Origin: Catajapyx aquilonaris
Lineage: Eukaryota
Reading direction: 5' to 3'
Assembly: GCA_000934665.2 (NCBI GenBank)
Contig: KZ538604.1
Location: 1-59,439 of the forward strand
Length of the DNA: 59,439 nt
The position numbers were made by a program, and so were the translations under genes. The notes under the pieces were generated by a model, which did no database searches, was not told where the DNA came from, and was given only the letters and a program-made list of their open reading frames with translations. Within the stretch, counting starts at the first letter, position 1. Each line of letters begins with the position of its first letter. Of the stretch, positions 10,964 to 36,096 are shown piece by piece.

Positions 10964-12088
10964 GGCTCTGAACCGTCTAATAGAGTCAAGACGTATCACG
11001 TGCTCTCAGTGTGGCGTACACATATGGCACATGACCAAAAAAGTTCTTCAGACGCCACCAAAAAATAGAGGAAGAGTTCATTAACACTGCCGCTAAACGG
11101 ACGAAGACTGATGATGTGGGCCAGGAGCAGGCGACTACTGATGGCAATATCAGGCGCTGACCTGTTTCTCTGAGTGTTAAAAACTTATGTCCCCACGGGA
11201 TCACTTACTATGTTGAGTAGTAGCCGCATTTTGTGAGTATGCAGGCCTACTTTATGCGTCCTTGTCATGACTGGATCTGGATTATATATTAATTGTACCC
11301 AAGGTTAAGGCCATGGTTGAAAAAGGATGCCATCACTTAAAGCAAGGTGCTATGGGAGTTATGGTCACAGCTGTAAAAAGTCACGAAGGTGACATGTTTG
11401 ATCGTGGAGAATTGGCGGTACTTTGATATGAACAATATGTGTTCAATACGACATCACGATCATAATTACTGAACCTCTATGGCACTAATAGCATTGCGCA
11501 TATATGGAGAAACAGAATAGGACTGATAAAAGGCCAACAAATCACGCATTTAAATCTTAACAAATTTAAATATACTTTGATAGACGGTGGAAACGTAAAT
11601 AACGTCCATGAAAAATCACCACATTACCAGGGACGTGTAACTGTAATTTTATCAATCAACTATAAGAAAAATGCAATGCTTTATGGCCAATCATTCCATA
11701 ATTATTAGTTGTTGAGAGTGTCTAAGCTCTAAGGTGCATCATCTGCAGTTATTCTAGAACAAATAATGATTGATCTTTATTGCTATACTTTGCTGGTAAC
11801 AATATTTTTTTTTTAAATGACAAACATTGATCAACCACTTGTTCTGGGCCGAAAGCGCTTAGGCCCGTATACAAAAAATTGCTGCTTCCCCCATCTACAA
11901 GTTATATCACCTTAATTGTTCTCTCGTCATTGCTAGTATGGGTGCAGTTGTCTCAGTTACACTCGGCACTATATATACATACAGTCTGGCAACACATCTG
12001 TTTTTTGGTCATTTCTTTTGCCTACCCGGGCCATTCTACAAGGATACGACTTCTTCGCACATTCACATATACGCATTGAGAGCTGGTC

Positions 12089-15000
12089 ATGGTTGACCTT
12101 ACGAAGATGGAACTGCTCGCTATTCTGGTTTGCGCATTTGTGAGTTGCTCTGGGAATGACACTACAAGTACCACAGAGAGCCTTCTGTCAGCGACCACAG
12201 TGAGGAGTTCAGAAGTGGAGTATCGCTTGATTCCGAGCGAAGACAGAAAAGGACAGGTGGTGTCACCACCATCCAGTAGTGAAGGCAGCGGTCACGTCGA
12301 AAATGATTCTGATTTTGAATCGACGACCAGCACCATCACCCCTACTACTGTTGGACCTCTGGGAGTACCTAACTACATCTCATTGTTTTTCCATCAATGG
12401 AAAGAAGACACATCTAAGAATATGACACATCAGATCCCATCACCTACCCGTGGAACGACGGCGATCCCTGCTGTGACACATCAGATTCCTGCATCTTCCC
12501 ATGGGACTACTGCGATCCCCGTGACATTGGCACAAAAGAAGATCAGGGTTATCGAAGAAGGATTTACTCCTGATGAAGAACAACTTCTTCTTCGGCTGCG
12601 GAAAGAAGAAGAGGAGAATCCTACCCGTCTGTTTCGTTGGGAAAAACCTGGATATTCGCCCACCTTGCCACCGACTACCATTCCACCCACGTGAGTTGGT
12701 TGTTAAATCAGTTCTCATTATTTTCTTTTCAAATAACCTCATAACTGCCTTCTGGCGTTTCTCACTAATTTTGATGAGTTGATCAATGTACATAATTTTG
12801 GTGACACTATTCAGATGTTTCTAGGGCTCCTCCGCCTCCTGGATATCCAGCTGTGTGTTCTCCAAACTGCCCGACATACACAGTTATTGAGGTTAGACGT
12901 CAATATGAGCTTCGCAAGTATCCAGCTATCACATGGGTATCTCATGTAGCCATCAACGACAATCGAGTCCTGGCTGAACTAGAGGGTTATATGAGGCTTC
13001 ACGATTACTTTCGTGGGCTCAACGAAAGAGGTGAATCTTATAACCTGACAATACCCTATTTGACGCAACTGAGGTTTTCGAGACATCCAGGAGTCCTCAA
13101 GGAGGTGTTTGATTACACAATTTCCATGTATCTTCCGCCTTTGCATGGTGCAGATCCCCCCAAAGCCCTCACGAGCGAGGTGAGTTAGTGACAATGTGTA
13201 ACCATCATGCTTTATATCATAGATTCCATAACTTTTTGTATTACTCTTTTTGAGGTCTTGATTGACGGAGTCGAGAGCAGCCTAGTATTTGTCCAGACTT
13301 TTGAAGCTTGGTATTGGGAACTGACGGATAAATCAATTCGGCAAAGAGCTACTCGCTTGATGGACCATCTCAGGAGTAACGGAGAGGCGTTTTTCGATCG
13401 GTATATCTACCTGGCTGCATATGAAAGGTGTGGGCATTGACAACAAGTTATGTATCACTGTTGAAGGCAGACCCGAAATGTTCCAGGCTACCAGATACGA
13501 GCTGTGGATTTACGCCACAAGAAATCGAGGTCGTTCAGAAGCAAAGCCAAGACATCCGGAGACTAAAGAGCAGGTTTCCAAACTGACTGCTCAAGTTCGA
13601 CGACGACTGTGTCGAGGTCTGTAGGATAATGAACTATTAATTGATTATGCCTGACAGAATTTAACAGTATTTCTTTATTGTGGTAGCCCTCTTCCTCGGA
13701 GAAGTGAATTCCTTGTTGCAGTTTCCAGGGCAAATATGAACTGTCCACTATTATTTAGACTCGGTATTTAAATAGCACGTTTGTTTTGGTCAGGTATCAT
13801 CACTGTGTCAACAGGGTGAAATCAAGTTGAAGATTCAAGTATGTTGTGCTCGTTGCATTTGGGTGTACTGCATTCTGATAAGTTCATTGAAATGGTTTTT
13901 AAATTGTTAGAGATACCTGGGGTCGTTCACCTGGGGGGATGTTGATGGTCTGATGATCAAAGATTACAAATGCGAGGAGGGGGGAGGTCCATCAAGGGAT
14001 GACTGCATTTTTTTTATACTTTGAACGATTATATCGATTGAAATCACAGGAGCAGTACAAATTTTGAAGGGAAAATTTTTGCGCCAAAGGCAACAAGGTT
14101 CCAGCATATTTTTTTCTTGAACTCCACAATTTTTCTTGGACGTTGTTCCTAATCAGTAACATAAAATGAAAAGTGAGACGCACAAATCAATTCTGAAACA
14201 TCTGTTCTCTGAGTATAGTAAAAGTCTGGGATCGAAAATTATTGAGAATTTACCATTTTCTCGCTTGAAATGGCCACACAGCAAGCCCTAGGAACATTCC
14301 AGAAGGTCAATTTTATTTTTTCTGACAATGACAGAAGATTGCCAATCTTTTGAGTCACATACTGAATTCACGAACGAAAATTTTAATAAAACTAAAATTC
14401 GCATAATTCCACCGTTATGCCCCACTTGAGGTGATGCTACATTGTTTAATATGATTGATATTATTAAGTTTTGCTTTCAGTGAGCAATATGCGAATCAGA
14501 TGACCATTAGCTACTATTATCAGCAAAATTAAAATTAAAATTTTGGACGGTTCTTGATGCCTGCAGTTGTCAACTTCAAATGCAAAAAATGGCACATTCT
14601 GAATTTTCTAGCTCAGATTTTCACTACTCAGAGTACAGATAATTACTGTATTAAAAACTTAGCTTCATTTTTCATATAATATTATTAGGAACAACTGCCA
14701 ATACAAATTGCTGTGGACCACTGCAAAATCTATCTTTTCTGAATTTTTCCGATTTAAAAATTGCCATAGGAGACTCCAGTAACTTTAAATAATCGTCATT
14801 TACTTTTATAGCAGTGTTACATAACGCCCGATCTTAGTGTTGCACACGATTTATTAAAATTGCTATCAAATGAAATTAATTATTTTGGAACACTACATAA
14901 AATAAGGCCTCTTTAAACAAGGTTATACAGCAACTTTGGGGAAATATACTAATCTTTTGAACATAATAATTTTATTAATTACGATTTTAGTGAGCAATTG

Positions 15001-17151
15001 GCAATTACAAAAATCAGTCATCATCTACCATTGTCATAAAAATGAACAGAAACATTATCCGCCTTGCATATCTGGTGGTGATGATAAATCGTTAAAAAAA
15101 AGTGCAGTATTGGGAATAATTTCAAATGCCGATTTCCGCAATACTGCAATAGCGTAGATCAGAACAAATATGCGTTTCTATTTTCATCTCACATTGTCAT
15201 GATCCTCATGAACAATTTTCGCTAAATATATTGTGGCGGTTCAAGGAAAAAACGATCCTGGATTTTCAGAAAGATACCCCCTTGGACCTTGGTGAATGTG
15301 AGTGATGACTACAGCTACAGTATTACAATATCAGCGCTTATTCTGTTTTCTGTATGTTGAGGAAAGGGTCTGAAAAGGTTTCTTAAGTGTCATTGTGCAG
15401 CATATGGAGGTAGCGTGTTAATACGCGTGAATTTAAAAAAAAACATAACATTGTTTTTTGTTATTATATATCTACTGCGATAACGTCCACTATAAAGAGG
15501 AAGCCTGGAATATTCATGCTATCAAAAATGGTCTGTAATACTGTAAGTTAGATTTTCCGACAAGTGTATCACCACCAGCAAAAAAAAAAACAACCCCAGG
15601 AGCGTTGGAAAAAAAACTATAATATATCGGAAAAATGTCATGACGTAATATATTGCATAAAATTGCAGACAATTCTAACCTTGTTACGTTGCACAGGATG
15701 CCGAGACACCAATACCATATATACTAATTACTGAAACTTACTGAACTACATCATTCAATTAGAATTGAATTCAATGAAAGTCCTAAACTAGTCCGGGCTC
15801 GTGACTTTAATCAAGGGCGGTTTATTCACAGTTCGTTTATAATATTAATTTAAACTAATCTGAAATCATTTTCATTCTTATTCCTTTCCTCGATCAAAAT
15901 GTATTGCTGAAGTAGGCATAATGTACAGATCTACGGAATGATTAATTTTTGTAACTGCCAATAATGATTAAATATCTCCGGCTTATTAAACTCACTCTCA
16001 GTGGAGTGGACGTCATCGTCACTCAAGGTCATTTTTCTGGGAGATACCGGTACTGTATGCGACTTTATAATTATGTGACAGTAGAGCACATACAGCATGT
16101 AGGAGTATACGTAGTTTTCAGGAAAATGTAATGACAAACGTTGGCTAATGAAGTGTCATAAATTGGCAGTTTGAGAGATGCGTTGAATTGTCTTTGAGAG
16201 CCTCTTACTCGTAGCATCAATAATTTACTTTTGATGTGTAGTGCGGAACACTCAATCAAAATTGCGACACTTTACTCCGTCACATTATTGCTTGAGTGTT
16301 ATTCTTTCTGTTACGGTTGAGTGTTTAGCAATAGTTGGCAATAGTAACTTACACATATCTTGGTTCATTTTTGTTAGGAGTGGAGTGTCCGTCATTCCAC
16401 GTTTTGAGAGTGTACAAATATGGCATTCAGAAGAGAAGATACTATGATGGAGTATATGTAACATCATCCGTGGAAGAGTGCCATTTTTCCACTATGGTTG
16501 TTTGGAAAGGATTTATGCCACTGCATCTGTATAAGCACGGTATGGAAGGTGGTGGTATGGATGCAGTATCTCATGTAACAAGCGCGCAATTTACTTGCAG
16601 GCATAAATTCCCACATGGAAGTGCTAGAAGCCACGAGGCCTATTGGTGTGGTTCATGTTAAGGAATTTCAAGTGGATAACATCAACACGTGCCCTCAAAA
16701 TATGTCTGTTTCCCTCTATCTGCCTCAGAGATTGCACAACAATCCTCCGGTCACTGGACCTGCAGCGGTAATACTGTTTTTGGGTGTAATAATATTCTTG
16801 ACAGAATCAACAACAGACTATAATAACACTGAGTAATATTTTTAATCTCCACAGCCGACTGTGAGAATAACACGTATCAACGACTTATTAGTTTATGTGC
16901 AGCCCGTAGGAGGATATCTTCTGGACCCGATCAGGGTCTCTACAGAGGTATTTATAAATTATTATTTTTAGTTTGCTGCCTTGTAATCAAAAATTATCAT
17001 GCAGGTTGCTGATTTCTCGTATCGACTGACTCAGCTGGGACTGTGTTTTCGTCAAAACGAGTACTTCGTTGTCATTTATGATTTCATAGTCCGATTCCAT
17101 GGCCGACAAAACGAAATATGGATGGTTGCTGAAAACTGCCCAAATCAGTGA
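12089..17151 (+). CDS. Secreted mucin-like protein with two tandem SOUL/heme-binding-protein domains; exons 12089-12690, 12825-13179, 13255-13427, 13471-13616, 16378-16539, 16601-16767, 16855-16947, 17005-17151
   Basis: Signal peptide (MELLAILVCAFVSCSG) and a S/T/P-rich stalk. SOUL motifs CPTYTVI..YELRKYP..WVS, RLHDYFRGLN, TISMYLP, PPK...V, VFVQTF, RYELWI. Second copy CPSFHVL..KRRY, LHLYKHGIN, VSLYLP, VYVQPVGG, RQNEIWMV. All splice phases are compatible. Confidence 0.88.
13992..14788. mobile_element. Old foldback/non-autonomous DNA element in SOUL-gene intron 4
   Basis: Diverged inverted repeats ~14140-14310 versus ~14540-14695 (e.g. GTTGTTCCTAAT/ATTAGGAACAAC, CTCTGAGTA/TACTCAGAG). Right end CTTTAA; boundaries approximate. 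Confidence 0.55.
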
Positions 17152-17559
17152 TATGAAAAGTACAGTACAAATATTGTTTAGTTCCTTGTAAGATTTTCAT
17201 ATAAATGCTGACTTCTTCAGTACCAATTATTTTATTGTGTAGTTGTGGCGATAGATTTGGAAGGCATGCATTCACTCATGACATACATGAACACAGTAAT
17301 TAATGACAATGAAATGCGTGCGAACTGAATGTAACAGTCAAGGTTTGGTATTATTCGAAATGTAAAGACGGATAGACATACAGTATGAAAGCAATATCCG
17401 AACACTCCATTAGCCTATAACTATATGACTGACCACAAACACACAGTGAAAAAAGAATGGTCATTCGAACAACACAAACACTGAAACATACTGCCATAAG
17501 GACACTTAAAAACGAAGGGTTCATGTCCATATTGTATAAAAAAGAAGGCGGCCAAAACT

Positions 17560-20500
17560 CTAAACCTTGGTGACTTTCGGTTCGGAATTTTTCTCTTCAT
17601 TCTTTTTCTGCATAACTTCGGATACTGCAAAAAACGAAATCGGTATTAAAATTTTCTACTAGAGCTTAACATTATTTCAACTTACATGAGTCTTGTACCA
17701 TACAAACGCCATATTTGATACTCCAAATCCAGCCGAATATAAGTGGCGTGGTTATTAATTGTAGAAGAGCAGCCAACACACCATATTTCACACCTCGTTT
17801 CTTGGTTTCATGCTTGGTTGTACCGCAGCACAAAACACAAAGAGCTCCGAGGAAGGATCCTATAAATCAATCACATCATCAGTAATAAACCCAGGACTTA
17901 ACGATATAGTAGTGTAATAACTTGATGGATACGGTAGAGGTAGAGGACGTGTCCAGCAAACAGTTCGAATTGTATGGGTCCAAAATGAAGAGGCACTCGC
18001 CATTACCAATATGTAAAACGGTAATGACAGTAGATAGATATGTCCTGGCACATTGGCAGATGGTAATACAAAGAAAAGATAAAGAACAAAAAATATATGA
18101 CGATAAGGTAGAGCCTCATAGTCGTATCTACATAATATCAAGTATAAGCCCGTAATAGAGGTGTAGGATCTTGGGATTTTTCATGTCATTATTAATTTCG
18201 TGTTCAGTAAACAGTGAAATAATAGAAAACTTCTTAATTAGATGGAGAAATGTTCCCATTAGTAGCTTGCTCAACTTTTATTTCCTTACGTGCCTAAAAA
18301 TTATGTGTTGCATTCAGCTATCCAAGTGTATTCCCTCGTAGGTGCGTCATTTTTCAATTTGGCTGACCAGATCCCTGAAGACACATTGGTGTCACGCGCC
18401 GGGTGTCATTTTGTGCATCTAAATTTTTACTGCATTTTATCATCATACATTATATACCCAGTCTCGTCGACTCACATGTCGGTATACGTGCCACTTGAGC
18501 CATGGGCATATTCATCCACGTCAACTGTACAATACTTGGTGAGTACCTTGCATTTACATAGTAACTCTGCTTGGATGACCATCTTTTTTTTTACACAGTG
18601 GAGGTGCATTGCCTAAGTCACCAGTTCTAGACTGGAGTAGGTGAAGATGTTATGGAAGTTTACTCCAGCAACCGGAGAAGCAACTACCATAACTGAATGT
18701 GCCCTGATTATTCCTTTCAGTGGTTTGCTTCTCCCTATAGTTTCTGGACTGAACAATCCGTAACTTATTCACTGCGACCCTGTTGAATTACCATCTTTAT
18801 AGTGTTCACTAGTCGATAAAATAACTGGGTAAAAGTGATGGTTTACGACTGGTTATATCCAGAACACTGCACTGGATTGAAAAATTGAATTTTAAAATGT
18901 CATTATTTACATCTAGTTTAATTGCTCCCCCACTGCTTCAGAGAGTTTTTATACAAATGGGGTGCATGGGTTCATTAACCTATGCACTCCCTTGGAGCAA
19001 TTCCCAACCAGTAACGGGTATGTTTGACCGAATTAAAGAGTGTAGCCTCTTCTTCGCAGTATTTTGGCAGTCAGTGGCATGGACTTACCTAACCCTGGAA
19101 GGCAGACGTTGAAGATACAAAAAAAGATCGCCAAAGGCACAGGAAGGGCGGGTACAGCTTTTCGGAAATTGCCTTGCTTCTCAATCACATCTATAATCTC
19201 CACTTGGGTTTTTTGACCATCAGGCGTTTCTAGAACCATCTGTAAGTAAAAAAATTAAGCACTGTATAACGATGCATTTTTAAATACCACAAGTGCATGA
19301 TAAGGATGCTAAGCCAAGGTGGCATCCAGGAGAAGGAGCCAAATGTGTGTGTGAGTGTGTATGTTTGTTTGAGGTGGGAGGGTCACTGGTCTTGGCTCGG
19401 TGTGTAAAAGAAGTAGCGAATTTGCTGGCAATAATTGCCAAAAGGTGGGGGTGGAGGCGGGAGAGGGGGACAAGTGTTGAGGGAGTTATTTGGGAAGTGT
19501 GGATAGCCAGATCCAGGCAATCCAGACAACTTGAGCCTTTTTTGAGACCAGGCGGAAAGAGCTTTTACTTTTACCAGAGCCAAGCCCAGTTGTTCGCAAA
19601 ATCTGGATATGATTTATCAGTTGAGAGCATATGTAGGCTACTGTCTGCAGAATCTGCCTTCAGAAGCGTTGCCAAACATTTAACGGTTCTTTGAGCTTCT
19701 TCATATCTAGAGATCGAAACTTTTTACACCCGTACGCATCAGGTCCGAAAACGAGAGTTTTCTGGTTTTCTGGCTGGTATCCCGTCATTTATGCCAACTT
19801 GCGCAGGCTGCTGGTCTTCCTTTTAGCCGACAGTGTGAAAAACAGAACGACCGTGACCTGCAGCTGACTCCACTGTATACTTGCGCTTTCTAATGTCCAC
19901 TCTGTCCTCGGTTTACTCTTAGCCTATAACAACGCCTTCACCTCCCAGAAACTATGCTTGCGTAACCACACTGTGTCAGAGTTACGGCGACCCGACCATA
20001 AAGGCCCCGCGCCAATGTATCTCATCATCCACAATTATTCAAAAGCTAATCAAGAACAAGAATTTACATTTACTGTCCTCACAAAAGGAACTCCAACTTA
20101 CCACCCGAACAGTGCGTAACCACACTGTATTTCGTCTCTAATTTACAAGTGCGTAAGAATCCCCACGGGAAGAGATAATGGTCTTGAAATGTAACGTTAC
20201 ATTATGACAGAATAATTTTTAAAAACTGTAACAAAACATAAGTGCCGTATAAAATCAATGGGATATATTCGGTGGCAATAATTGTATGGAAGTATATAGG
20301 TCGTTCAAAAATGATTAAATATAGTTTTCACTAAATATTATTAAGGCATTTTCCACTACTTGAAACTTATCACATCATATAAATCAGGGAAAAATCCATT
20401 CCCACTTGTAGTATACAGCAGTTAAAAATGATAGTGTATGATATGTTGAATGATTCAAGTATTCATTCCGTTTTCGTTCCTTTACTGGGCAAGCACATTC

Positions 20501-22472
20501 CTGAGCACCACTCGATTTTATGTGCCGCAAATATTCCGCACGGGATCTTAAAATGTTACGGCATTTCTGAAATAACTTGATGTGTTTTGGCATCAATATA
20601 TCAAGCGTGAAGGGCAGCTCTAAAGTGTGGCATTCCAAAAGGATAAGTATTAAACTATAAAAGTCAGCTTCTCGAAGCATAACTGCTAAGAATAGTCAGG
20701 TATATGAGCTGTACCAGGCAGTAACTACGCGGCAACGATTTATGAGAAATGTATCGTATACAAACTGCAGGAAGTTTGCACAGCAGAGATTTACAACCTT
20801 GCAACAAGACACATTGGTTCTTGCCTGTCAATCAAGTATGAAAGACCTCTTTCGCTTAAAAATTCAGTTCAGCTCCCTCTACTAACAATTATCTGTCTCT
20901 ATCCAAACAAAGCAAGATTTATACTTTAAAAACCGATCCATCTTTTTAGACCGCTACACCTGTGTCTTGGATGCTAATTTCTAAATTGCTCGGGACCTGT
21001 TGTAGTGACTGAAGTGTTGCCAACAGACGTCACCCTTCGCAAAAGACGTGTCGACAGGCTCACTGACATGCCTCATTAACCACGTTCATTATATGCAGTA
21101 CCGGTACCTATTGCTTGTGAGAACTTTCTCATGGTATTCTTGTAATGGTTACACATTAAGCACACAAGTGACTTAAGCGGTATCGTTGAATAATATATGA
21201 ATGAAAAGGCCTCCAGTCACAAGAAGAAAGTAGCCTGCAGTATATGACCAAGATATGACCAATATTTTCCCTGTAGGATTTTATGTTATATAGAGAAACC
21301 CGCTGTACAACCTGCTGTACAAGACATGAAGTTACTTGGGTCACAGTATAGCCTACATGTATAAAACAGCTGACAGGTACAATACTGACAGCCAAAGTAC
21401 ACGAATTAAGTTTTAAATGTAAAAATGAGAAATATACTGGACAAAAAATGCTGGGAATTATTTCATATCACTCAACTGTCGGTCGCTCCGGTTTTTTAAA
21501 ATACAACCTAGCCTACATAGATGTCCCTAGACTAAGTAGCACATCTGGGCTGTGGAGATCACACGATACAGCGTAGGCTACTTATACTGTACCAACCCGC
21601 ACGTGTTGACTTCCCCACTAATAAGAAAAATGCAGCATGTAGGAATCTTCCGTAAAAGAACTCGCCTAGAAATTCATAGTGAGGGTAACAACCATGACTT
21701 TGTTTTCCTATGCACTGGATGCGTATAAATATTCAGGGTAAGGGCCAACGTGCGATAACCGTGGACGCCCCCCCCCCCTCCTTCCCCCCCAAAAAATCCG
21801 TGACAAGTTTCGCCTTCCCTTTGGCTAATGGCTCTCAGCCAGTTCTTGTCATGTTGCTCCGACTATTTCTGTCCTTCCATTGTACCCCAGAGAGGCTGGT
21901 CTCGGAAGCAATTTTTTCTCGGGAAATCCGCCGAATTTTAGTGTCGGCCCAAGTCCAAAATATGCCACGTCATTTTCAAGCTTTTTCTGCCCGGATGTGT
22001 CATCTCCGAGATTTGCAGTTTCCGTAACACATCCACTACTTTACCCACATATATGCTTTCTGAAGTCGTTCAACTCTCATTACCCAAGATTTGTACTATA
22101 GTCTACTCGACAAAAGGCAGGAACATAGATATTAAAGGTGCTACCTCTAATATCTATGGGCAGGAATAAATTATATGTGCACATAAGTGTTAAATTGATC
22201 CGCAATATTCCGTATAATAGTTTTGCATATTAATAAGTCTTTGGCATGTACTGTTATGGAATGCTAACCTGATTGTCTTCCATCCTAATCTGTGACATGT
22301 TGGCACTGTTCTTTCTCCTCTTCTCAATTCCTACACCGGCTGCTTTGAGAAGGTTGGAACTCTTCTTCTTCTTTTCCGGCTGTCCATCTTCGTCCGCCAT
22401 GGGTGCGTCCAAGCCCAGTGCATGCCCTTCGTCTGTGTCCGTGACATTCATGGAGAAGGCAGGCGCCGCCAT
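17560..22472 (-). CDS. stum/SPEC3-family membrane protein (197 aa); exons 22472-22269, 19239-19089, 17859-17686, 17624-17560
   Basis: FRKAVPALPVPLAIFFCIFNVCLPGLGSFLGALCVLCC ... AALLQLITTPLIFGWIWSIKYG is the stum/SPEC3 signature. GT-AG junctions in phase, aatcaatATGG start, ends VTKV*. Confidence 0.88.
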
Positions 22473-22495
22473 ATTGATTTTTTGTGTTGTCCTTA

Positions 22496-22675
22496 TTACA
22501 CCTGTAAGTCTTTCTCGGGGTCGTCGTCCTTGTCTCGCTGAGTCAGAAGAACCCAAATGGCCCCAAATAAGATAAGAGGGCCAACACCAAAGTAGAAGTT
22601 ATTGTGGTTGAGGATATTCAGCCAGTTCCCTGGATTCAAACCCTGGGAGAGGACGCTAATGGCTGACCAAAACAT
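22496..22675 (-). CDS. 59-aa single-pass transmembrane micropeptide (uORF in the same exon as the stum-like start)
   Basis: MFWSAISVLSQGLNPGNWLNILNHNNFYFGVGPLILFGAIWVLLTQRDKDDDPEKDLQV followed by TAA TAA. The ATG lies 10 nt into the exon after acceptor cttgcag (22686-22688); the stop is 23 nt before the stum ATG. Confidence 0.5.
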   Translation of the reverse strand: MFWSAISVLSQGLNPGNWLNILNHNNFYFGVGPLILFGAIWVLLTQRDKDDDPEKDLQV

Positions 22676-25600
22676 GCCGTAGAGCCTGCAAGAAAGATAA
22701 AGTGTGATTGAATTATTTTGGTCATCATTTGGATGATGAGTCACCCTTAATAATTTTAAGTATGATATGTGCTTACAGTACGGCCTATTGATGCTCAAGT
22801 ACAACTCCATATATCAGTCAGTTCCCGGATGCAGTCATTTCCTTTTTTCATGCATTGCTCGCGCAATAATAGATAATGTACCGCCAGTACCGGTACAGAT
22901 GTCGTGACAAATTTGCAAAGCTTTGAAGCTCTTTGACTAGTACGCAGGAATATGTAATGAGATGGTTATCCACTACTTAGATGGAAATATGATTTACCTC
23001 TTGTAAGCAGTAAAAGGAAAAACAAAATTGGAATTAATATACATCGGGGAGGTAATGGGATATGAGAACGGAGCTTACAAAAAATGAACTTGCGGTTAAA
23101 TTCATAATTCTCAGAAACGAATAACTAAATACGAATGTGGCTTACAGTTCCTTAGTGTGCCTCTGCATCAAAATTGCGATTATCCCAACGTGATAATCTT
23201 CCTATTGAAATAAAATTTAGCATTTGAATTTCAACGCCTTATAATGAAAAGTCACTAACGCACTTGTAGCTTCAATGTGCTTATAACTGTCAACAGGGTG
23301 GATTTTTCTCAAATGAACTGCCAATATCACGTTGGAGCTAGGTAATCTTTTGTTTTAGCATGGTTTTAGTGTGCAGGGGAGGTCATGTCAGATCAGCGTC
23401 CTTGAGGCAATTCCCAGGTCTGTGAATCAACTTTAATGAGGCACAGAAGGAAAGATTGTATGCACTTATTTTAAACTTTAGTAGGTAAAAAAGTTACGTA
23501 GGCATATACATTCATTTCAAATGCAAATAATATACGCCTACCTCAAAAATGAATTTAAATTGCCTTAAAATCGTACACTTTTCAGGGTAAAGTACTACGC
23601 GAGACTTTCAGTACGTTCAGATACAATTTTTTTTTTCGCAGAACTTTTGCTTTTCAGCATATAGCTTTCAGTTTTATTATTGCTGTCTCTCCTAAACCTA
23701 AAAGCTGCTCTTACATTTATTCTAGAGCCATGACTATTTTACAAACACAGTAGTCTAGTAATGGAGCTAACTGGAGTGGGAGAAGGGGAAATGCGGGTAC
23801 TTAAACGGAAGGTGCCGTTTCCAGACCTCAAGGGAATATACGGTCCCGCATGCAACCACCTTACTCCACGAGTTAATTAATCAAATGCACGTAAAGATAC
23901 TGGGTCTCGTTTTACACATGTAACATGCATAATGAGGTCTTATGTTGACAAAATTGTGCGAGAGAGCAGTTTAATATCAAATAGCGTGTGTTTTGCACAA
24001 TCATTGTAAGGCAATGCGTTTATGCTTTGATATACATTGTAAGTAGGCTACCGGTAAGTGTTTAAGACATTTTTCCAGGCAGGAATCGCATAATGAGCAC
24101 TCAGTCGATTAAAAATTAATTACCCAAAGTACACCTCGAAGATTTTGTACGAGGAAGAGTTCTGTTTTAAAATGTAATTATAATTTTTGTGTTATTCCTA
24201 TATAAGGGGTGTTAGGCACCTCCGTGTTTCGAGGTATGACGGGCACGTTGCTATGAATAACTTGTTTAAAGTTGCACTTTCAAACTGACGTTGACTAATA
24301 TTCTTACATGCGGAATAGTGTACCCCATAATGACTGTTCTAAACTGATCAAATTTTGATGACAACACGTACAAAATTATGAAACACTTTCTACCGTATAT
24401 ACCCGTCATCAATCCGGAAATTTTTTACTCCTCCCGCAATTTAAACAATAATAATAATTAAAAACTTGCCTCCTCGAGCATATAATTATGAAGAAACAGT
24501 AGGCTACCCTTCGCTAGATTCTTGATTACAACCTACAATTAGCACGTCCTTTATAAAAGTTAGAAGAGCATGTCAAAATCTGTCACTTGAATAATTACAG
24601 TGAGACAGTAGCCACAAGGAAATGGGGTAACAAACACGAAAAATTGAAAAGAAAGACATCCTACTCAGCACGTGCATTTGGATGCGACAGGTGGCACTTT
24701 ACCTGTGTTTGACATTCCATCCCGATGTCGGATGGGATCCAAGATGACTATGCTCATAATATTGGCATAAGAGCCAAGCAAGAAAATGACAAGCTCGATT
24801 CTTGTTTCAATCACTTGGGAGCACCAGCTTTTTTTCACGCATGCACTCTTGGCCACAAACCAAAGGTAAATACGGAGAGGGGAAACCCTACAAGACTCCT
24901 CCAGAGGAGCACAACCTCCCAAGTGAAACTGAGAGTTGGCCCATTACCAAACGAACCAATACAACTCCTCCCTTCCTATTTTTTTTTTCTTCTTCTTCCC
25001 AAACTACGGGTGGATCATGGGTATTTTTGTCATGGAAAGGATTTCAGCCCAAATGGTACTTACGAGCACCTTTTGGGTATTATTTTACGGCCAGCCACTT
25101 CCTGACACGATTGAACCCACCTTGCAACATAAGCTAGTGGAACTGTGCAAAGCAATGTCCTATGGTATAAAAACTACAGGACATGCTTTCTAGGTTATGC
25201 CCAAGTTGTTTCTCCTGCACCAGAGTAAATTAGGACCTTTGGAATTCCTTACTGTTCAACAGGCTGAGAAACACCAGGAAGAAATTTTAGGGGACTGCCT
25301 TTAGGCTGCTCAGGGACGTCGACTCAACTAGACAACCCGACTCTTTTCAAATGGACCTCAAGCAACAGTTAGTCAGCCCTGGTCTTGGAATTATGAGTGT
25401 GGCTATATAACCGCCCTTCGTTCATTTGAATTGCACTGGAGTGATTTTAAAATGACAGCTGTATTGCTACACTGGATTTATCAATCAAGAAATCAACAGG
25501 GATATTTGAGAGGGTTAATGAATGTAATTGACACCGTTACCTTTTCTGGGGAGCTTAACTCCAGGCCTGCTCAAAGCTCAATGAGCTTGATGGGCAGTTC

Positions 25601-25950
25601 AATCAGATCCACTCTACATACATAATGGCTGTTGGTGAGACGCAGATTTCCTGTGAGGGGTCATCACTGAAAGTCAACAAGTTTGGCAACGTGCATAACT
25701 TTTATTTTCCAACCCAACAATTCGGTTACACATTTCGAACGGTTCTTTCCCTTTAATAGATGTCTAACACAGGTTCAAATACTTGCATTATTGCACTGAA
25801 TCAGTGGCTTTCATTTGTACAACAAACTGGTTTAGCTCAGGTAACAATACAAAATTAGATTTGATTACATCAATGACTTTCACATTGCATAGGAAAGCAG
25901 ACAGGTGCAGCCTTTAAAAAAATCAGAATTCCATGCTTGATGCTACCCTA

Positions 25951-28900
25951 TTAGGAAGATGCCACTGAAAAGCGGTATACAACATTGTGTGAGTAGACAA
26001 CACCAGGAGCAACAATGCTCTCAGGGAAATTGGCCTGAAACAGTGTAAATAAATACAATAATTAGAATTTTAATAGCATTTCAACAGATCATATTGGAAA
26101 TGCATACGTACCAAATTCACAGCATTTGGGTAGTTTTGTGTTTCTAAACAAAATGCTCCGTGCTTGTGGTAATAAACTTTCCCTTTGCCTGGCATAGAAT
26201 CCTCAGTTGGAAAGTAGTTACTGGTGTATAGCTGAACTCCAGGCTGGTCAGAATATACCTCTAGAACCCGGCCTGATGGTGGGTGATGTACTCTACAATA
26301 ACGAAATTACATATTAAATTTTCAAAACAATGAAAAAAAAACCTGCAATGAAGTCCTTATTTTTTCAAAACAATAGCATCAAGGTATCAATGCACATGTA
26401 CAGTACCGCTCATAAAGAATGGTACGACTCTGTGGACAAATTGTTTATTCTGTTCCCAACCCCTGGGTCACCAGCATGTTTTTAGGGGTCATAAGGAAGG
26501 CTGGGAAAAGGCAATTAAAATCAAGAAAATAAGAGAAGAAAAAACAAGGCAAAGTAAGAAAATTTAAGGGGAGAAATTCATCTCAAATCTATGTAAGCAT
26601 TGTATCATCAGTCCAAAAAGAATTGTCCCTTGCGTCGAGCGGGCAGCCACGCATCAGGATGAAAGGAACCAGTTAACTGGTTGCTTTCATCCTGACGCGT
26701 GGCTGCCTGCTCGACGCGAGGGACAATTCTTTTTGAACCGTTGATACCAGGTTGAACATTTCGGTAATAAATTTTTTTGGAAAAATTCGGGAGGAGGTCA
26801 TATGGGTCGCCAGATATCTAGGCCAAGTTGTCCATAGTGTCGCGATGAAATCAGGTTGGGAATAATGCTGGATAGTCAGAATAAACACGTCGTCTAGAGT
26901 CGTACCATTCTTTATGAGCGGGACTGTACCAGTACTCATACAAGATGTTTCATAACACCTCCAAGAAACTTTTATGGTAAACACCTGATTACCAGAGGAT
27001 CACCACTTTATGTAGAGGTGTCATTTGTTCATTGCAGTGTCTTGACTAAGAAAAGTGACTTTTTATCATTTAGTATAGCATATCCTGGAAGGTTTGCATC
27101 TCACCACCCACAGGGGATGTCTGAATCATTTTCTGTGACCAACTGGTACAATAAGTGAGGGATCAGCAGTGCAAATTAACACTGCATGGTTACATCTGCA
27201 CAACAAATTTAATTATTATCATCAGAGTAATTTTTGAAAAGGGAAACATGTGCAGCAAGGGTAGAAGGGCCCATCAAGACAGGACATAATTAAGACATTT
27301 TCGCCCTTTTATGATGTCCTGTACAGGCGCGCAGGCAGAAAATTTTTCGGAGGGGGCCCCATTTCATAAGCACAAGGTGAACAAGCCGTAAAGGGCAGGC
27401 GAAGGGGAGGGGGGGGGGGGGGGTCGNGAGCTTATGTGAATGTGGGAGATTTGAATGGATGTGTATTTGATGAAATTGATAGCACTTTTTCCAAAAAATC
27501 ATGAATTAGTAATTTATAATGCTATTTCAAACTGTCCTGTATATCGTCGTGGTCCGGACAAAATTGCGGCGCAGTCCGCCAGTTGAATAGCCCTGCACTA
27601 TTGCAATAGCTAAAAAATTCTACCATCAGTGCCAAATTGTAGAGTAAGTTGCACTATGAGCTTGATGCACTATCACGAACACTGCTGAAACAGTCATCCA
27701 AAATGTCCTCCTCAATACTTGTGGCTTGCACACTGCATGGTATTCATGATTCACATTGTAGTTCATGCAGCTGAGCTCCATGTAGTTATAAACTGTTGCT
27801 TCACTTTATCACTCCAAGTAAAAATTAATGCATGTGGATGTCTGCAACTGTCAAATGCATACCCAGCTGATCAAGACACTGAGGTGGGTCATGATCAAGC
27901 CAAGGTTACACAATTGTGTACTGGCAAGTGGTAGGTGTACTCCACATGTGGTCAGACACAAACCTTCCATGATGTGCTATGCTACATATTAAAAGCACAT
28001 TATCTCCCTAACTAGGCTGTAGAGACCAAATGACTCCCCTATCTAAAATGAGCCTCTTGTCCACAGGATATCATTCTATACATGTTGGTCGGAAAAATTA
28101 TGAACATCCTGTAGAATCTGCCTGAAAAAGTTACCTCCTTTTCCAGTCATGGGTTATATTGAGTAATCCTTGTACAAGTTGTTCAAGCAACAAAGAGTTC
28201 CTAGCACCAAATACAGAACATATTGATTGATCCACTCCATCAGTTACATCAATGCAATGGTTTGTTCTATTTGGTCAGTCAATTACACATGTATTCCACA
28301 TAGTAAGAAAACAAGCCGAACCTAGAAACAAATCGCTTTCCTTGCCCCTCATCACCATTGATGCAATAGTTGACATCATAACCGCCACCAGGAACCTCAT
28401 TGATGACATCTCCCAAGCAGCGTGGGATCCTCAAGTCATAAATAGTTCCTCCCACAGACTTGATCTCTCCTAAAATGATGGACTCAATATAGTTACATAA
28501 GAAAATATTGCTTCATTATGTAACTATTGTTTTACCTGTGGCAATAAACTCTTCATTGAGAGGAGTATATTTATCTGCATTGATAGATATCATATGTTCA
28601 TAAATGCCAGCTAATCCTGATGCCTGTGGAAGAGAAATAAGGAATATTACATTAATGTAGTCTCTGGTAAACTAGGGGTCTCTCAGTTTGTCTGCTAAGC
28701 CAGATGACCTCCCAGCGTAAATGAAATAGAGGTACCCTGCAAGGAAGGACTTTCGTAATAGGAGACCGAATGTGGCAGGGGTAGGGGCACACTGCGCCCA
28801 CCTACCCCATGACCTAACCTTTCTTCCCGGCAGTACACATTTATCCTTCAGCAGATACACGCCTAGGAGAGTAGGTAAAAGTGCGGGGTCTCCCGATACG

Positions 28901-31900
28901 AAAGCGTAGCCAGCCTGAAATTACCACACTAAGACATAAGCCAGCTGCTTGTCACATGTCAAGTACTATATCGCTCAAAAAGATAGAGACGATTGGCATT
29001 TGATTCAAGTGCAAGTTGCACTTGAGTCAAATGCAAAATCGTCTCTATCTTTTTGGGCGATATAGTACCTGGCCAAGTGAAATGGAGGGCTTCCCATGCC
29101 AGTGCCCAATTCATTATCTGCCTAATATATTGTTGTGGACACGTCCTTTTCTTATTGTAGCCAGTCAGTACTTCTTCTTCACAGTAATACAGCTCCTCTA
29201 TCATTTGGGCAATTTTGCACTCTGACTAATAGAAATTGTCACCATGTGTAGTTGGTACATTGGCACTGACAGGAAAAAGGAAAAAGCACATGTCTCCAAT
29301 TAAGTCCAATAGTACCCTGTTACCGTAGTGCAGTAGTCCCAACCTTTTCCGGGTCGCGACCCCACCCCCACTCTGCCCCCTCCCCCTCCGAGTGTTAGTA
29401 GGTGTTGAAAGAAACCTTCGTAATGAAATTTCCTAGAAAATTTATTTTAGTTATTTTTTCATTTAAAAATAATCGCAGCGACGCGCAACCCCCTGGAAAA
29501 GGCTTCGCGACCCCCACAGGGGTCACGACCCACAGGTTGGGAACCACTGTCTTAGTGTAAAAGTCATAATTCCCCATTTATGGACTGGAATTAGTTACTT
29601 TGTGGGTGGCATCACCAGCTTAACATGACAGCCCTGACGTTTCAGGGTTCCCTATAGTAATGTTTGCCAGCTGTTATTTTCACAAGTACAGTAAAACTTC
29701 TATAAGTTGAACTTCCCTACGCCGAAGTTCTCTATAAGTTGAAGAAAATGATGAGCTTGGTTGGTCACAATGTAAAATAATAGGAAATAAACTTCCCTAA
29801 CTCGAATTTTTCTATAACTTGAAGTGCAGGCAGGGCCTTACGATGGGATATCAATGCATTTTGAGTCTCCCTAAGTCGAAGGTCATGTTGGCGTGTATGG
29901 AAAATTTTCTCATTTCCCAGCCGAAGGGTCGAGAGTAGGCCACATGTACAGAAAGGCTCGATTTCCTGATCTCCGTCTACCAGACGCACCGAAAGAAGTA
30001 TTTGACTCAATTGTGCCAATTGAATCTAAGAGTAGGCAAATGTCCATAACGGAGTTTTTTTTTACATAAAATCAACGAGGAACATTGTAAGTGTGATAGT
30101 GACAGTTATTTTTAAGTTTTGAACACCTTTCGTCACAGGATATGAAGGTAGGCTTCCTTATAGAGTTATGTGCTTAAAAAATTCCAACCTTCTCTAACTC
30201 GAATCTTCTATAACTCGAAGTTTTTTCCCGGTCCCATGGAGATTCGACTTATAGAAGTTTTACTGTATCACATTATGGTTTGTTCACTGCATATTAAAAA
30301 CTGAATCATAACTGTTAAAACTCTATTCAAGCAGTGTAAGATAGTTTTATGAAAAACATCTATCGCACAGTAGTTCAATAAAAATATCATGGGACACCTA
30401 GAATGTCATTTCTGAGTGTCTGGGGTCGGTAGTGAAATCAGAAGCTGGCAAGGACGAAAGGAAGGATATCAAATTCCTTTATAATGCCTCATAAGACGTA
30501 AGTAAATCTCCAGGCAAGAGACCCCAAGAAAAAAAACCTGTATCTCATGAAAATGGAAATTCGGGAACTTTTTCACTTTTCCCAAATCTTTCAAGGCCAA
30601 TTATAATATGATACGGGTACAGTGTTGGACATTAATCGAGTCATACTGCTAGCAACATTTTCCGAAGCGGCATAAGAAAGAATCGAAGATATGGATAGTG
30701 CAAGCCATGCGAGCAAGATTCGTTCTTCTGCTGCTTCAGAAAATGTCGCTAGCAGTATGACTCGATTAATGTCCAACACTGTACAGAGGTACAGTACACC
30801 CTTTATCTTCCATAGCAACAAGCTGTATTAGTACCAGTAATACAAGTGCCAAAATGAAGTCTTATCCCTCAAACACTTGAACTATTTGAAAGGTCTTTGT
30901 ATTCAATTAACACTATCAGAATACTGAATATACAGGGTGTTCCAAGTTGGGGGTCGTTTTTATTTATCACTAATATAACGCCTGAAATATTTATTTTTGT
31001 GTAGCTTGTTGGCCCATATCCAGGTGCCCGAATACTCCCAGGTGGTCAAATGTAGCAGTTGCTATAAAATAGGGCGCCTGGATAAGGGGCACAACATGCT
31101 ACACAAAAATAATTGCTTCAAGCGAAATTGCCTATAACTAAAAGTACTAATATACTTGGAACACCCTGTATACAACCAATGAAGGTTCAGGCAATAAAAA
31201 ATGTAGGGGTGCAAAATGGAAGGAGAACAATTATTAATACACAAAAGCCAGACAAATGTCTTCACTGCATGTGTTCATGCAGTTATAAGAATTGAGAAGA
31301 TGAGAAATGGTGCAAAAGAACAAAATTAGAAGAAAATGTAGAGATGAAAAATTCTCAACAGCACCTATAATAACTGCAAACTGTTTAAACCTGTTAGCAG
31401 TTGGTTAGGTCCTAGCACGTTTTTCCAGGTTTGCTTAGGGGTGTGGTTTTGCAATTTTATATCATTTTAACCCTTTGTCTCCCACGACCATGTTGGTTGT
31501 ATGACCAAACAATTGTTTAAAAAATTCACTGGTATAACTCTGACTGAAATTTCTTTCACCATAGCCTCAGGAAATGTTCATAGTTTCCATGTTCATGAGT
31601 ATTTATGCCACTGGCCTGATATTTTTAATGGCATGACGTCATAGGCCAAAGGTCTCATTCATAGTAAACAAACACCTACTGTACGAATTTAAATACACAC
31701 TAGAAAAACCCTCGCTTTGCTCGGATTTTTCTATGGTGCAGGCCCAGAAAACCACTTGCTTCGCTCGCTTTTTTCTAGTTTAAATACACACAGCTCCCTG
31801 CCTGATATTTCCCGGTAAGTGGACGTGCAGCTGAAAACCATATTTAAAATCCCGAAATTCTGTGACTTACTTTTCGCCGGGGAAAAAAATCAGAACGACC

Positions 31901-34900
31901 TGTGAAGGGTAGGCAAACTCCCTTGCCGCCATTTCGGTTGTAAAAAGTGATCTCGCTCCTAATTGGCTGGGCGGACTGCTCCGAGCTCTAGGCAGTACTC
32001 GCTTGCCACCTGAGCCACCTTTTTTTCCACCTGGTGGATCACATTACCTCCTTTTAAACTGGACCTTTAAAAAATTTTTAACAGACACTTAATGTTTTCA
32101 TAATTCATCAGAGGGACTGGGCAATCATATAAAATTATCTTAGATTTTTTCGAGGCGTGAAAGCTGCCTTTAAAACACCCCGTAGATGTCGCAATGGGAT
32201 GACATCACCTTCTTGTGCATAGCATATGAGGCAGTGTATGGCTCTCTCAAGATGCAACTCAGGTTTGTAGGTCTCGGATGCTTCAGCCCCCTTTTGTGCA
32301 TGAATCAAGAGCGAAACCAATGGTGCCAGATCCAGTGATTTTCACCTAGGGCGCTATTTTTATACTCCCCACCGAAAGAGTGCATAATCAAGCAGGAGAC
32401 AAAGGGTTAAACTGGCCCTCAAACTGCCCACAGACAGTGATAGAAACTTATAACAATTTCTATTTCAAGTTTTCTAATGATAGTTGATGATTTTTGAATT
32501 GTATATTGTTCACTGAAACTGACATTCTCAATGAAGTAAATGATTGTGCAGTACTAGTTGCACAGTGCATGATATCCTTTACATGGGATATTACCATGGA
32601 AGCACATTACCCTGTATAACATGTGTTCCACAAAATTAGTTTCAATTACTGATTTTTCCACACTAAGCTGCTTATTATTACGTAGTTACTTTCAGGGGCT
32701 ATTGACTATATTGGCTCATATCCGTACTAGTGACCAGTGTATAGCTGAACTGTCACACCCCATCCCAGTAATTATATTCTCCAATTGTAAGAGAGGAACC
32801 ATTCAGCCAGTGTGATCAACTGGAGAGGCAGGAGAAGAGGTCTTGGGTTCCTGTGCGCCCTGCAGCCTCCTTATCGTAGAATCCTGCCCTGTGTAACATT
32901 CCAGCCAATTAGACAGACAAATATGTTTCTTCCTTTTCCATATTTGAGAATAAAGTCACCTGGCACATGCACGGGTATCACTTCACAGTACTGGGCCAGA
33001 AGTAGTGCGGAACCTTCCATTTAACTAATTTCAACTTAATAAACAAGATTCAGCTGAAAATCTTTGTCCCAAATATGGCTACAATAATTGAGGCGCTCAG
33101 AGGAAAAACGGCACATCCCAACCAACCTCCGATTTTGAGATTGTAGTGCTTTTGAAGCCTTTTTCGTAAAAACAACATATGTCAAAAGTGGTCGAAAACG
33201 AGTTATGGCCACCACCGCTTAGTTCCAAGCCTTGCGCTCTAAATGGTGCAATCGAAACGCAAAAAAGACAGTTGTCAAGGGAGAAAACCAATGTAGAAAA
33301 AATGCCCCTTACGCAAGAACAGCAGACCAGAGAATGTTTTTTTGTGTCTCCTGAAAAGTTCAATTTTTTGACATATGTTGTTTTTACGAAAAAGGCTTCT
33401 TTTGTACTCTCCTGTCATCTACCTTTCATGTGCTGAAGTCCCAAATGAATTGGGGTATGCCAAAGCTCACACATTCCACTTGTAAAATTGGTCCACAATA
33501 GAAAATCCTATTCTCTTGCAACACAAAAAGCCATTTATCTCAAAATGAACTCCGGTTGGGATATGCCGTTTTCCTCTGAGCGCCTCAATTGAAATAAGGT
33601 TATGAAAGAGTTTCTATGTCTTTATAGAGGTATAATAAAGTTGAAAAACTGCAAAATAGCAATTCAAATGCAAAAGATCCCTTCCCAGATCAATTTTAGC
33701 ACTGTGAACCATAATTTTTAGTGATAATTCTACCTAATAATATCAGAAGGAAAAGTTGGAACTCAGTTTTTTCCTGCCGGGTTTTTGAGTGATGAAAATG
33801 ACCATTTAAAATTCAAAAAATTTCAACATTTTCAACATTCATATCGCCACAAGAGGAAATTGGAAGGTTTAGAAATTTTTATTCCAATTTTTCCACAAAT
33901 GGTAGATCATGCCCAATACACTAAAACTCTGATATTCAATTAAATTCATGGGCAAGCAGTTGTAATAGCACATCATAACACCCTACGTCAGGGTTTCTCA
34001 ACCTTCATTCCCGTGCGGAACCCTTAATATAATATTGAAGTCTCAGGGAACCCATACATGAAAATTATTATATATTAATTAATGGCCCAAAAAACATTTA
34101 CATACAGTATGATAAACTTATTCATCCCTATTTCTCATGGAACCCCAGTTGAGAAACCCTGCCCTACATGAAGGGGTGCCACATTGTGTTACCAGCTTCT
34201 GGAACAGATTACCTGCCACACAACAGGTCATACCCCACTCAGCTTAATGCAGCTCCCATGTATAGAAGAAAGTGGATGGGAGCTTACTTATGAAGCTGAG
34301 TGGAACACGTCTTCAAGATCAAAATGAAATGTTGACTGACTGAAGGGAAATGTGACATTTCCATTGCCAGTAAAGCAACTTTACATCTGTACAATATTGC
34401 ATCAAGTTCTTCATAGCATGCTTACAAGTGACCCAAATGTCACTAATGCATAGCCCTCAAGTTCTTGTCATGGAAATTGGCTGAAGAATACCTTGCAATT
34501 TTAATTCGTAAGAGACTTTCCCTATACCATGAATTAAAATACATCCCATGCTGAATAAGAGAAACCAAAATGTGGGAACTATACGCACGTGTCCAGCCAA
34601 ATTGAAATATGCATGATTGGTTAAGTTGACTGGCGTTGGTTTGGTGGCAGTGGCCTTAAACTCAAGTATAAGCTCATTCCCTGGTGTCAACTGGTATGTT
34701 GCATGTGCCATGACTTCTCCTGGATATCCTTCTTCCCCATCCTTGCTCAGGTAGGACATGGTAACTTTGGTGCCCTCCACATGTGACTCCCAAATGGCCT
34801 TATCGAATCCTTTCAGTCCCCCATGGAGGTGGTTATTCCCCACATTCTTGGTTAGGTGATAGCAATTATCGCCAATGTTGAAGGTTGCATTTCCAATCCG

Positions 34901-36096
34901 GTTAGCCACCCGGCCCACAACAGCACCCATGTAAGGGTTTTCACCTTTCAAGCCACGGTAACCTGAGTGAGAAAGACAGGCAACTGAATATTCACAAGTG
35001 ACATCCAGTATTAACCATATGTAATATGATAAGGAAGTGTTTGATGCATTATTATTACAATGGTATACCTTACATTCAATAAACCACATGCAGCTGACAA
35101 TAATGCCTTGTCATTGGGTAGAATGATGGTCCAGGGACGTGAAGGAGATAAAATAACAAAATCTTACTCTTGAATTCATGTACCAGTAATTAAAAATCAA
35201 GTTACCTTACAATTCTAACTGTACAGGATCTGTTCAAGAAACACTTTTGATGAGGATTGCAACAATTTTTAGTGAGGACTGTTCTTCCTAGTTTTAGATG
35301 GAATTGTGAAACCAGTTCTTTCCCTACTCAACTGTGACGCTTAGCTTTGCAAATAGTGAATTTGCAACTCATTTCAGGTTAAAATGGCCATACAATAAGT
35401 TAGGGGATTCTGGCCGATTTATATTTAATGTCTAGGGTTGCATATTATTTGAAATGCATTGCGAATGTGAGTTGTGAACTCGTTTATGTACCGGTACCAT
35501 TAATTATTTATACGTTATTGTTTCAGAATTAGTTACACCTGTATCAGTATCACACATGTGGTGGAGTCTCCAGTCATGTTAGTATTCCTGTACTGCCAAA
35601 TTTTAGTCAGCTAGAAGAACTGAATATGCATTACCCCACATGCATCTCTCGCATCTTTTCCTTTCCCCTCTTGGGCACCAACAGGACTAGTGGGTGTGTG
35701 CAACATGACGTAAGTTTAATTCTGAAACACAGTAATGCACTGTGCAAACTGATTTGCATCATGCATTGTCGAACCCATATGTGAATCTATCCCCAGGTCT
35801 CATCATGCATGCAATCAAGTATCTTGTCAATGACAGAAAGCAATTCTCCAACTACAACTTCACAATATACACCATTTACCATCCAAATCATCAAATCCAC
35901 AGACGACATCATCCCCCTTCCCATCCTTGTCTGGCACCTGGATGGAAGTTATGGCGGCTCCATACGTGATAATTTGTATGGTCATGCCATTTCTATTGGA
36001 AAGCGTAAACCGTCGTATGGGCTCACATATTCCCTGCTCCTTATCTTTCAGGCATCCAAAGCTGTCCTCCACAAGTTCAATCTCCGAGTTATTCAT
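25951..36096 (-). CDS. GALM: Galactose mutarotase / aldose 1-epimerase (363 aa); exons 36096-35880, 34962-34589, 28623-28536, 28469-28322, 26292-26112, 26034-25951
   Basis: Motifs GAVVGRVANRI, NHLHGG, EEGYPG, TPVNLTNHAYFNLAG, QPGVQLYT, FCLETQNYP. All introns GT-AG and in phase. Confidence 0.96.
26401..26926. mobile_element. Tc1-like MITE with a central ~130-bp near-perfect palindrome
   Basis: TA-CAGTACCGCTCATAAAGAATGGTACGACTCT ... AGAGTCGTACCATTCTTTATGAGCGGGACTG-TA. Internal palindrome ~26610-26735 centred on CCAGTTAACTGG. Confidence 0.85.
28958..29073. repeat. ~115-bp near-perfect palindrome (foldback MITE-like)
   Basis: GTACTATATCGCTCAAAAAGATAGAGACGATT...CAAGTGCAA-G-TTGCACTTG...AATCGTCTCTATCTTTTTGGGCGATATAGTAC. 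Confidence 0.85.
29331..29549. mobile_element. hAT (Charlie-like) MITE
   Basis: CAGTAGTCCCAACC ... GGTTGGGAACCACTG, with degenerate 8-bp TSD CCGTAGTG/TCTTAGTG. Confidence 0.8.
29689..30265. mobile_element. Tigger/pogo-like MITE
   Basis: TA-CAGTAAAACTTCTATAAGTTGAA ... TTCGACTTATAGAAGTTTTACTG-TA, with internal TCTATAACTCGAA repeats. Confidence 0.85.
30620..30781. mobile_element. Tc1-like hairpin MITE (162 bp)
   Basis: TA-CAGTGTTGGACATTAATCGAGTCATACTGCTAGC ... GCTAGCAGTATGACTCGATTAATGTCCAACACTG-TA; almost wholly self-complementary. Confidence 0.9.
30933..31168. mobile_element. mariner-type MITE
   Basis: TA-CAGGGTGTTCCAAGT ... ACTTGGAACACCCTG-TA. Confidence 0.8.
31471..32406. mobile_element. 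piggyBac-type non-autonomous element
   Basis: TTAA-CCCTTTGTCTCC ... GGAGACAAAGGG-TTAA. Confidence 0.85.
31700..31778. mobile_element. 79-bp mini-element nested in the piggyBac MITE
   Basis: CTAGAAAAA ... TTTTTCTAG flanked by direct repeat TTTAAATACACA (31688-31699, 31779-31790). Confidence 0.65.
33090..33586. mobile_element. Sola-like non-autonomous DNA transposon
   Basis: AATT-GAGGCGCTCAGAGGAAAAACGGCACATCCCAACC ... GGTTGGGATATGCCGTTTTCCTCTGAGCGCCTC-AATT; 4-bp TSD and GAG termini. Confidence 0.75.
33989..34161. mobile_element. hAT MITE
   Basis: CAGGGTTTCTCAAC ... GTTGAGAAACCCTG, with 8-bp TSD CCCTACGT/CCCTACAT. Confidence 0.85.

Follow-up and report, generated by a model that had tools for sequence, protein, structure and literature searches.

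A conserved upstream open reading frame encoding a candidate single-pass membrane microprotein ahead of a Spec3-family gene in Catajapyx aquilonaris

Closest described systems and the locus

Upstream open reading frames (uORFs) whose peptide is conserved between species form a known class. In Drosophila, 44 cases averaging 70 amino acids (aa) in length were described, corresponding to 0.3% of transcripts, according to the available text of Hayden and Bosco (2008; PMC2276209). Here we describe an open reading frame (ORF) of 59 codons located at 22496..22675 on the minus strand of contig KZ538604.1 of Catajapyx aquilonaris (assembly GCA_000934665.2), in the leader of a Spec3-family gene. Positions 1 to 59,439 of this contig, a stretch of 59,439 nucleotides (nt) hereafter called the window, were analyzed. 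As in the Drosophila cases, one mRNA carries both a main ORF and a long uORF with interspecies peptide conservation, and the 59 codons come close to the average length of that set. However, in the available part of PMC2276209 that set is defined by a ratio of nonsynonymous to synonymous substitutions (Ka/Ks) below 1, whereas the Catajapyx peptide was judged by protein comparison.

Other described systems resemble the locus in their membrane products. For example, the fly sloth1-sloth2 transcript, on which leaky scanning was demonstrated (PMC9681215, available text), also has a small single-helix membrane product before a second ORF, a short spacer, and a weaker first and a stronger second AUG. 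It differs in that Sloth1/2 are paralogous mitochondrial peptides whose translation and complex were shown, whereas our two ORFs are unrelated, are preceded by extra upstream AUGs and are known from sequence alone. STREMI, the uORF microprotein of SLC35A4 (PMC13303939, available text), is likewise a membrane microprotein from the 5′ untranslated region (UTR) of an mRNA for a membrane protein, and it acts both as a protein and as a translational regulator. STREMI differs in being mitochondrial and MIC10-like and in having a partner other than the downstream product; it showed no sequence likeness to our candidate, no direct comparison having been made. Also, uORFs that are in-frame alternative exons constitute a known trap (10.1101/2024.03.22.586333, available text).

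The protein encoded downstream of the peptide carries the domain of the Spec3/stum family (PF15795) and shares three intron positions with a second Spec3 copy of the genome, on contig C266, but differs from the family in being short. Sarcolamban, FXYD and similar proteins are small single-pass regulators of membrane proteins, and our peptide is like them in its size, its single helix and its likely accessory role. Such regulators are not known to arise from uORFs of their target genes, and the peptide had no Pfam match to sarcolamban/FXYD-like families at E up to 1.

No stum/Spec3 gene with a described uORF or micropeptide was found in a literature search that left most subscription papers outside its scope. 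As gene names, stum, Spec3 and CG30263 had no match in the main text of PMC2276209, STUM is not mentioned as a gene in the available text of PMC13303939, and a term search of the available text of PMC12054790 and PMC5315463 gave nothing relevant to a stum/Spec3 micropeptide. An earlier, sequence-only reading of this DNA had considered the pair undescribed, and this search gave nothing to the contrary. The arrangement, a conserved-peptide uORF on a bicistronic mRNA, is already known, but the peptide and its pairing with a Spec3 gene appear new.

A spliced transcript with two reading frames and a conserved peptide

The transcript was defined with the one public sequencing run listed (X1), in the form of assembled contigs, which were taken as RNA from their spliced joints and which cover 0.53 of the words of the window. 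Record 2 of X1 (1185 nt) joins five exons of the minus strand at GT-AG sites, with 0 differences from the window over the 4 listed pieces. The leader exon 0 (24703..24917) follows from the joint 22684/24702, confirmed as GT-AG, with 215 letters beyond it, from which its approximate 5′ coordinate was derived. The internal exon A (22269..22685, 417 nt, 0 differences) is flanked by AG and GT, both joints being present in the contig, and contains the complete 59-codon ORF and codons 1-68 of the Spec3 ORF. The latter continues through exon B (19089..19239), where the Spec3 domain begins, exon C (17686..17859), which holds the remainder of the domain, and exon D (16902..17624), which holds the last codons (stop at 17560) and the 3′ UTR, and encodes 197 aa ending in VTKV. 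This UTR reaches at least 16902; record 1 of X1 overlaps record 2 by 30 nt there, so that the part below 17396 is joined by inference. Thus, the 59-codon ORF and the 197-aa Spec3 ORF are on one spliced transcript, as the sequence-only reading had proposed, and this transcript extends upstream of 22675, as that reading also required, into the leader exon. The 417-nt exon with its 59-codon ORF, double stop and downstream Spec3 ORF in another frame had been described correctly, coordinates included. The statement that the ORF almost fills the exon has to be amended: the uORF occupies 180 of the 417 nt, the start of Spec3 a further 204, and exon A is not the first exon.

In the spliced leader, the frame of the peptide is closed upstream by a stop at 24807, with no in-frame AUG in between; therefore, no other protein has the peptide as its tail in the X1 isoform. 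Read-through from the upstream GALM gene was rejected, since that gene has a separate contig ending at 25682 and a last donor whose phase does not fit. The depth of 0.38 over 25032-25695 is the amount given by the last 14 nt of the GALM contig, and the bin 24368-25031 has a depth of 16.5, slightly above the 15.5 explained by record 2. In the leader exon region (24703-24944, minus strand), a further strong-context AUG, opening 18 codons, is found at 24944, just beyond the 5′ end of the contig.

The first coding part of the Spec3 ORF (22269..22472, minus strand) comprises AUGs at 22472 and 22451 and is separated from the uORF by a spacer of 23 nt (22473..22495, minus strand), which has a G+C content of 26% and includes a second TAA directly after the stop of the uORF. 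With A at -3 and G at +4, AUG 22472 stands in a strong context, and it is in another frame than the peptide. Pfam detected Spec3 in exon C (39.4 bits for a cut-off of 27), and exon B scored 19.2 bits, below the cut-off. A search with exon C gave 18 candidates, one of which passed 1e-5. This Logan protein (P0004, 185 aa), which falls closest to Spec3 clusters of the Atlas (score 0.93), is identical to the 197-aa protein at 162/185 positions, with 49/50 in exon B and 51/58 in exon C; its fold model (predicted local distance difference test, pLDDT, 53) was too poor to use. P0004 starts at the second Met of the 197-aa protein, that is, at the weak-context AUG 22451. The earlier description of a strong Spec3 start is thus right for AUG 22472 but not for the start called in the relative, and AUG 22472 may be particular to the C. 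aquilonaris gene. The Spec3 frame is also open for 42 codons above its first AUG (22473-22598, minus strand), over the helix and tail of the peptide, with weak near-cognate starts only.

In the predicted peptide, an uncharged and amphipathic N-terminal part leads over a GLNPG turn into a single hydrophobic helix, which is followed by an acidic tail with DLQV at its end. The putative transmembrane helix covers residues 27-45 (22541..22597, minus strand), which form the best 19-residue Kyte-Doolittle window (1.95), and a structure model of low confidence (mean pLDDT 63) places a helix at residues 28-50. Positive charges favour the cytosolic side of a membrane, according to the positive-inside rule. 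As residues 1-45 have no charge and basic residues follow immediately after the helix, the sequence suggests an N-out, C-in topology; the tail (residues 46-59) has 6 acidic and 3 basic residues. When the 428-nt leader was shuffled, a closed ORF of at least 59 codons occurred in 333 of 3000 shuffles, and in 7 of 3000 it came with an equally hydrophobic window. The ORF alone is unusual yet not decisive genome-wide, and it is the orthologue that carries the case.

This orthologue was obtained by a protein search over 1,835,955,588 representative proteins, which gave 2 matches at E ≤ 0.001. One of them, a protein of 4105 aa (P0003) with no aligned stretch, was dropped as spurious. The other (P0002, Logan, E = 4.9e-23) is also 59 aa long, has a common start and end with the peptide, and aligns without gap, 42/59 residues being identical and 51/59 similar. 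The peptide-level conservation on which the sequence-only reading depended was thus found, over the full length and with conservative changes. The GLNPGNW turn is invariant, the window of the helix has a hydropathy of 1.83 in P0002, and only 3/16 positions differ in residues 44-59, next to the stop. The 17 substitutions have a mean BLOSUM62 score of +0.53, with 2 negative values, and all 7 changes within residues 26-59 score at least 0. In neutral simulations that kept an intact ORF and 15-19 changes, indels being left out, the mean was about -0.6, and the observed value was reached in 1/397 runs at a divergence d of 0.08, 9/2771 at 0.12, 9/3680 at 0.15 and 3/2009 at 0.2. The changes in the peptide are more conservative than neutral drift (p about 0.003), and we regard selection on the peptide as such as very probable.

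P0002 and P0004 were each found on 1 contig of 1515 nt, and from this equal length they probably share one contig. Since the whole Spec3 ORF fits within 1515 nt, this contig is suggested to be spliced RNA. The terminal Val of both products, already pointed out in the sequence-only reading, is conserved, with DLQV/DVQV for the peptide and VTKV/ITKV for the Spec3 protein. Classes of PDZ-binding motifs are defined by a Val at the C-terminus in combination with T or a hydrophobic amino acid at -2, and both products fit such a motif, as a motif only.

Other searches with the peptide were negative, also as regards micropeptide families of the SMIM type. Pfam returned only DUF6906 at E 0.14, below cut-off, the PDB sequence search and Foldseek (with the weak model) gave 0 matches, and the best Atlas cluster scored 0.82. 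In the whole genome (285.6 Mb), the only match was the peptide itself, with no second copy, and nothing resembling it was found in 20 kb around the C266 Spec3 copy, where the 5′ end of that gene is not placed. A word-index search gave no candidate though P0002 is in that collection, so that its blanks are weak; an alignment search retained its 1 of 1 candidate, P0002. One of 599 pattern matches (L009) was dropped because it shadows, in another frame, the end of a bacterial ORF. No significant RNA structure was detected in the region (z = +1.04); RNA structure therefore does not explain the conservation.

Proposed translation of the two frames and alternative explanations

We favour, with some reserve, a bicistronic mRNA from which a stand-alone 59-aa single-pass membrane microprotein and a Spec3-family protein of 190-197 aa would be made. 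The best reading of the peptide itself is a lineage-restricted single-pass microprotein from a conserved uORF. It is probably made as a separate product. It would be inserted N-out, C-in, with its Val-ended tail in the cytosol, as for the Spec3 protein. Action in trans as a membrane protein is somewhat better than an even prospect, and the likeliest role would be that of a small accessory protein in the membrane, expressed together with the Spec3 protein.

The two products may be obtained by competing routes. Five AUGs (24842, 24768, 24757, 24720 and 24715) lie in the leader exon before the AUG of the peptide, which is the sixth on the leader of the X1 contig. Those at 24757, 24720 and 24715 open frames which overlap the peptide ORF and end 20-40 nt past its AUG and 163-204 nt ahead of the Spec3 starts; the interval from 22675 to 22472 is free of further AUGs. 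Ribosomes starting at these three AUGs would terminate and then reinitiate at the Spec3 AUG. Those reaching 22675 by leaky scanning would produce the peptide, end 23-44 nt before a Spec3 AUG and mostly give no Spec3 protein, so that the peptide ORF would also limit Spec3 output.

The alternative that survives best is a purely cis-acting uORF, in which the nascent peptide, perhaps through its acidic, Pro-bearing C-terminus, slows or stalls ribosomes and so determines Spec3 output, the released peptide being inert. A leader rich in AUGs and the few differences in residues 44-59 beside the stop fit such a role, and 7 of 17 tested human conserved uORFs repress their main ORF in a sequence-dependent manner (PMC7530721, available text). 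However, the hydrophobic helix and the GLNPGNW turn, which are far from the stop, are also conserved, and the amphipathic character of the N-terminal part is kept (moment 0.44-0.47). A stalling peptide need not preserve a helix, a turn and an amphipathic stretch, and we consider this explanation unlikely.

Still less probable is an alternative exon, in which splicing from a donor ahead of the last codon would join 58 codons of the uORF in frame to exon B. The Spec3 isoform so formed would gain a membrane helix at its N-terminus, and the conserved Q-V-stop would reflect read-through of that donor. A weak donor-like site does exist at 22494..22504 (minus strand), after 22502 and in phase 0, like the donor of exon A (174 and 204 coding nt, respectively). 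Also, Q-V stands at the end of both the peptide and P0002, and among 2,199 human uORFs, 582 are potential exons of this kind (10.1101/2024.03.22.586333, available text). However, the site has only 5/11 U1 matches, compared with 6-9 in 9/9 RNA-supported donors, and 262 of 583 background GT sites score at least 5. No fused joint occurs among the 15 listed of the 20 joints in X1, whose contigs drop rare variants, and the depth equals that of record 2 alone (22.32 vs 22.3 in exon A, 10.94 vs 10.9 in exon B). The contig of the relative likewise gives the closed 59-aa form.

A neutral leader common to two close species, its ORF untranslated or translated without purpose, is very improbable. The survival of an ORF is frequent at low divergence in simulations, and the peptide has a single orthologue and no family, fold or Atlas match. 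On the other side, its substitutions are far more conservative than neutral ones, and its 59 codons are free of indels, whereas the adjoining Spec3 N-terminus shows a 5-residue gap and another start in P0004. Fusion by frameshift was rejected, as the sole slippery-type heptamer (22643) leads to a frame closed before 22598.

Several observations weigh against the bicistronic reading with a selected, separately made peptide. The five upstream AUGs, three of them overlapping, should reduce translation of the peptide, and a single RNA run in the form of contigs hides start sites and rare isoforms. A neutral ORF stayed intact and 71% identical in 23/100 simulations at d 0.12, this fraction falling to 0.035 at d 0.2 and 0.0004 at d 0.3. 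The 71% identity of the peptide is no higher than that of the Spec3 tail (15/21), and the single orthologue was compared as protein. The absence of AUGs within the ORF does not reach significance, being found in 17% of synonymous recodings, and the four-fold sites of the uORF have G+C at 13/24.

As regards the partner of this candidate microprotein, direct binding to the Spec3 protein is doubtful. Slightly more doubtful is a role as an accessory subunit dedicated to the Spec3 protein and made from the shared mRNA in a ratio set by the leader AUGs. In such a subunit, the peptide would pack on the Spec3 helices, or a PDZ scaffold would hold the two Val-ended tails together.

Two Spec3 genes, neighbouring genes and significance

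Of 70 candidates in the genome, 66 match the cuticle family PF00379, in line with an arthropod; one weak 7tm_6 match did not settle the class. The genome holds two Spec3 genes, of which the C266 copy (about 103140-109722, minus strand of contig C266) scores 65.9 bits vs 39.7 for the window gene. The two are identical at 16/32 and 20/51 positions. Upstream of the C266 domain lie long acidic, Pro- and Gln-rich, low-complexity open frames, as candidate exons. Fly Stum is a long protein whose Spec3 region lies at the C-terminus. On this basis, the C266 copy would be the likelier orthologue of fly stum, and the window gene a short paralogue. The earlier label of stum/SPEC3 is thus right as to the domain, which is above cut-off, but orthology with fly stum probably belongs to the other copy. 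Fly stum is reportedly required in joint-angle proprioceptive neurons (Desai 2014, as cited in the available text of PMC10985947 and listed among the references of PMC7184881). Since the window gene is probably not the stum orthologue, a mechanosensory role for it is unsupported, though not refuted.

Regarding the other genes of the window, an aldose 1-epimerase gene (GALM; Pfam Aldose_epim), spliced in X1, occupies 25682-36115 on the minus strand. Head to head with it, about 700 nt apart, is a gene at 36846-40232 (plus strand) with a weak unrelated Pfam match only, which presumably resembles GDP-D-glucose phosphorylase 1. The pair at 25682-40232 would then be two sugar-metabolism genes. A SOUL heme-binding gene (12080-16836, plus strand), whose product has a putative signal peptide, a long N-terminal stretch rich in Ser/Thr and a hydrophobic segment at the C-terminus, converges by its 3′ end on the Spec3 3′ UTR, where RNA cover goes down to 16902. 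Two protein-like open frames of 135 and 103 aa, the former without Pfam match, are found at 5650-6420 (minus strand).

Conserved uORFs are a known class, and the peptide has so far been seen in two related species, whose arthropod lineage is poorly sampled; this limits the weight of the finding. Nevertheless, the peptide adds an unannotated microprotein family missed by standard databases (one match in 1.84 billion representatives). Spec3/stum proteins are widespread and molecularly poorly understood, and a co-encoded membrane peptide is a testable candidate for a partner or regulator. Were the peptide a subunit, a Spec3/stum protein would for the first time have a molecular partner, and short Spec3 genes elsewhere among arthropods might have diverged counterparts hidden in their leaders.

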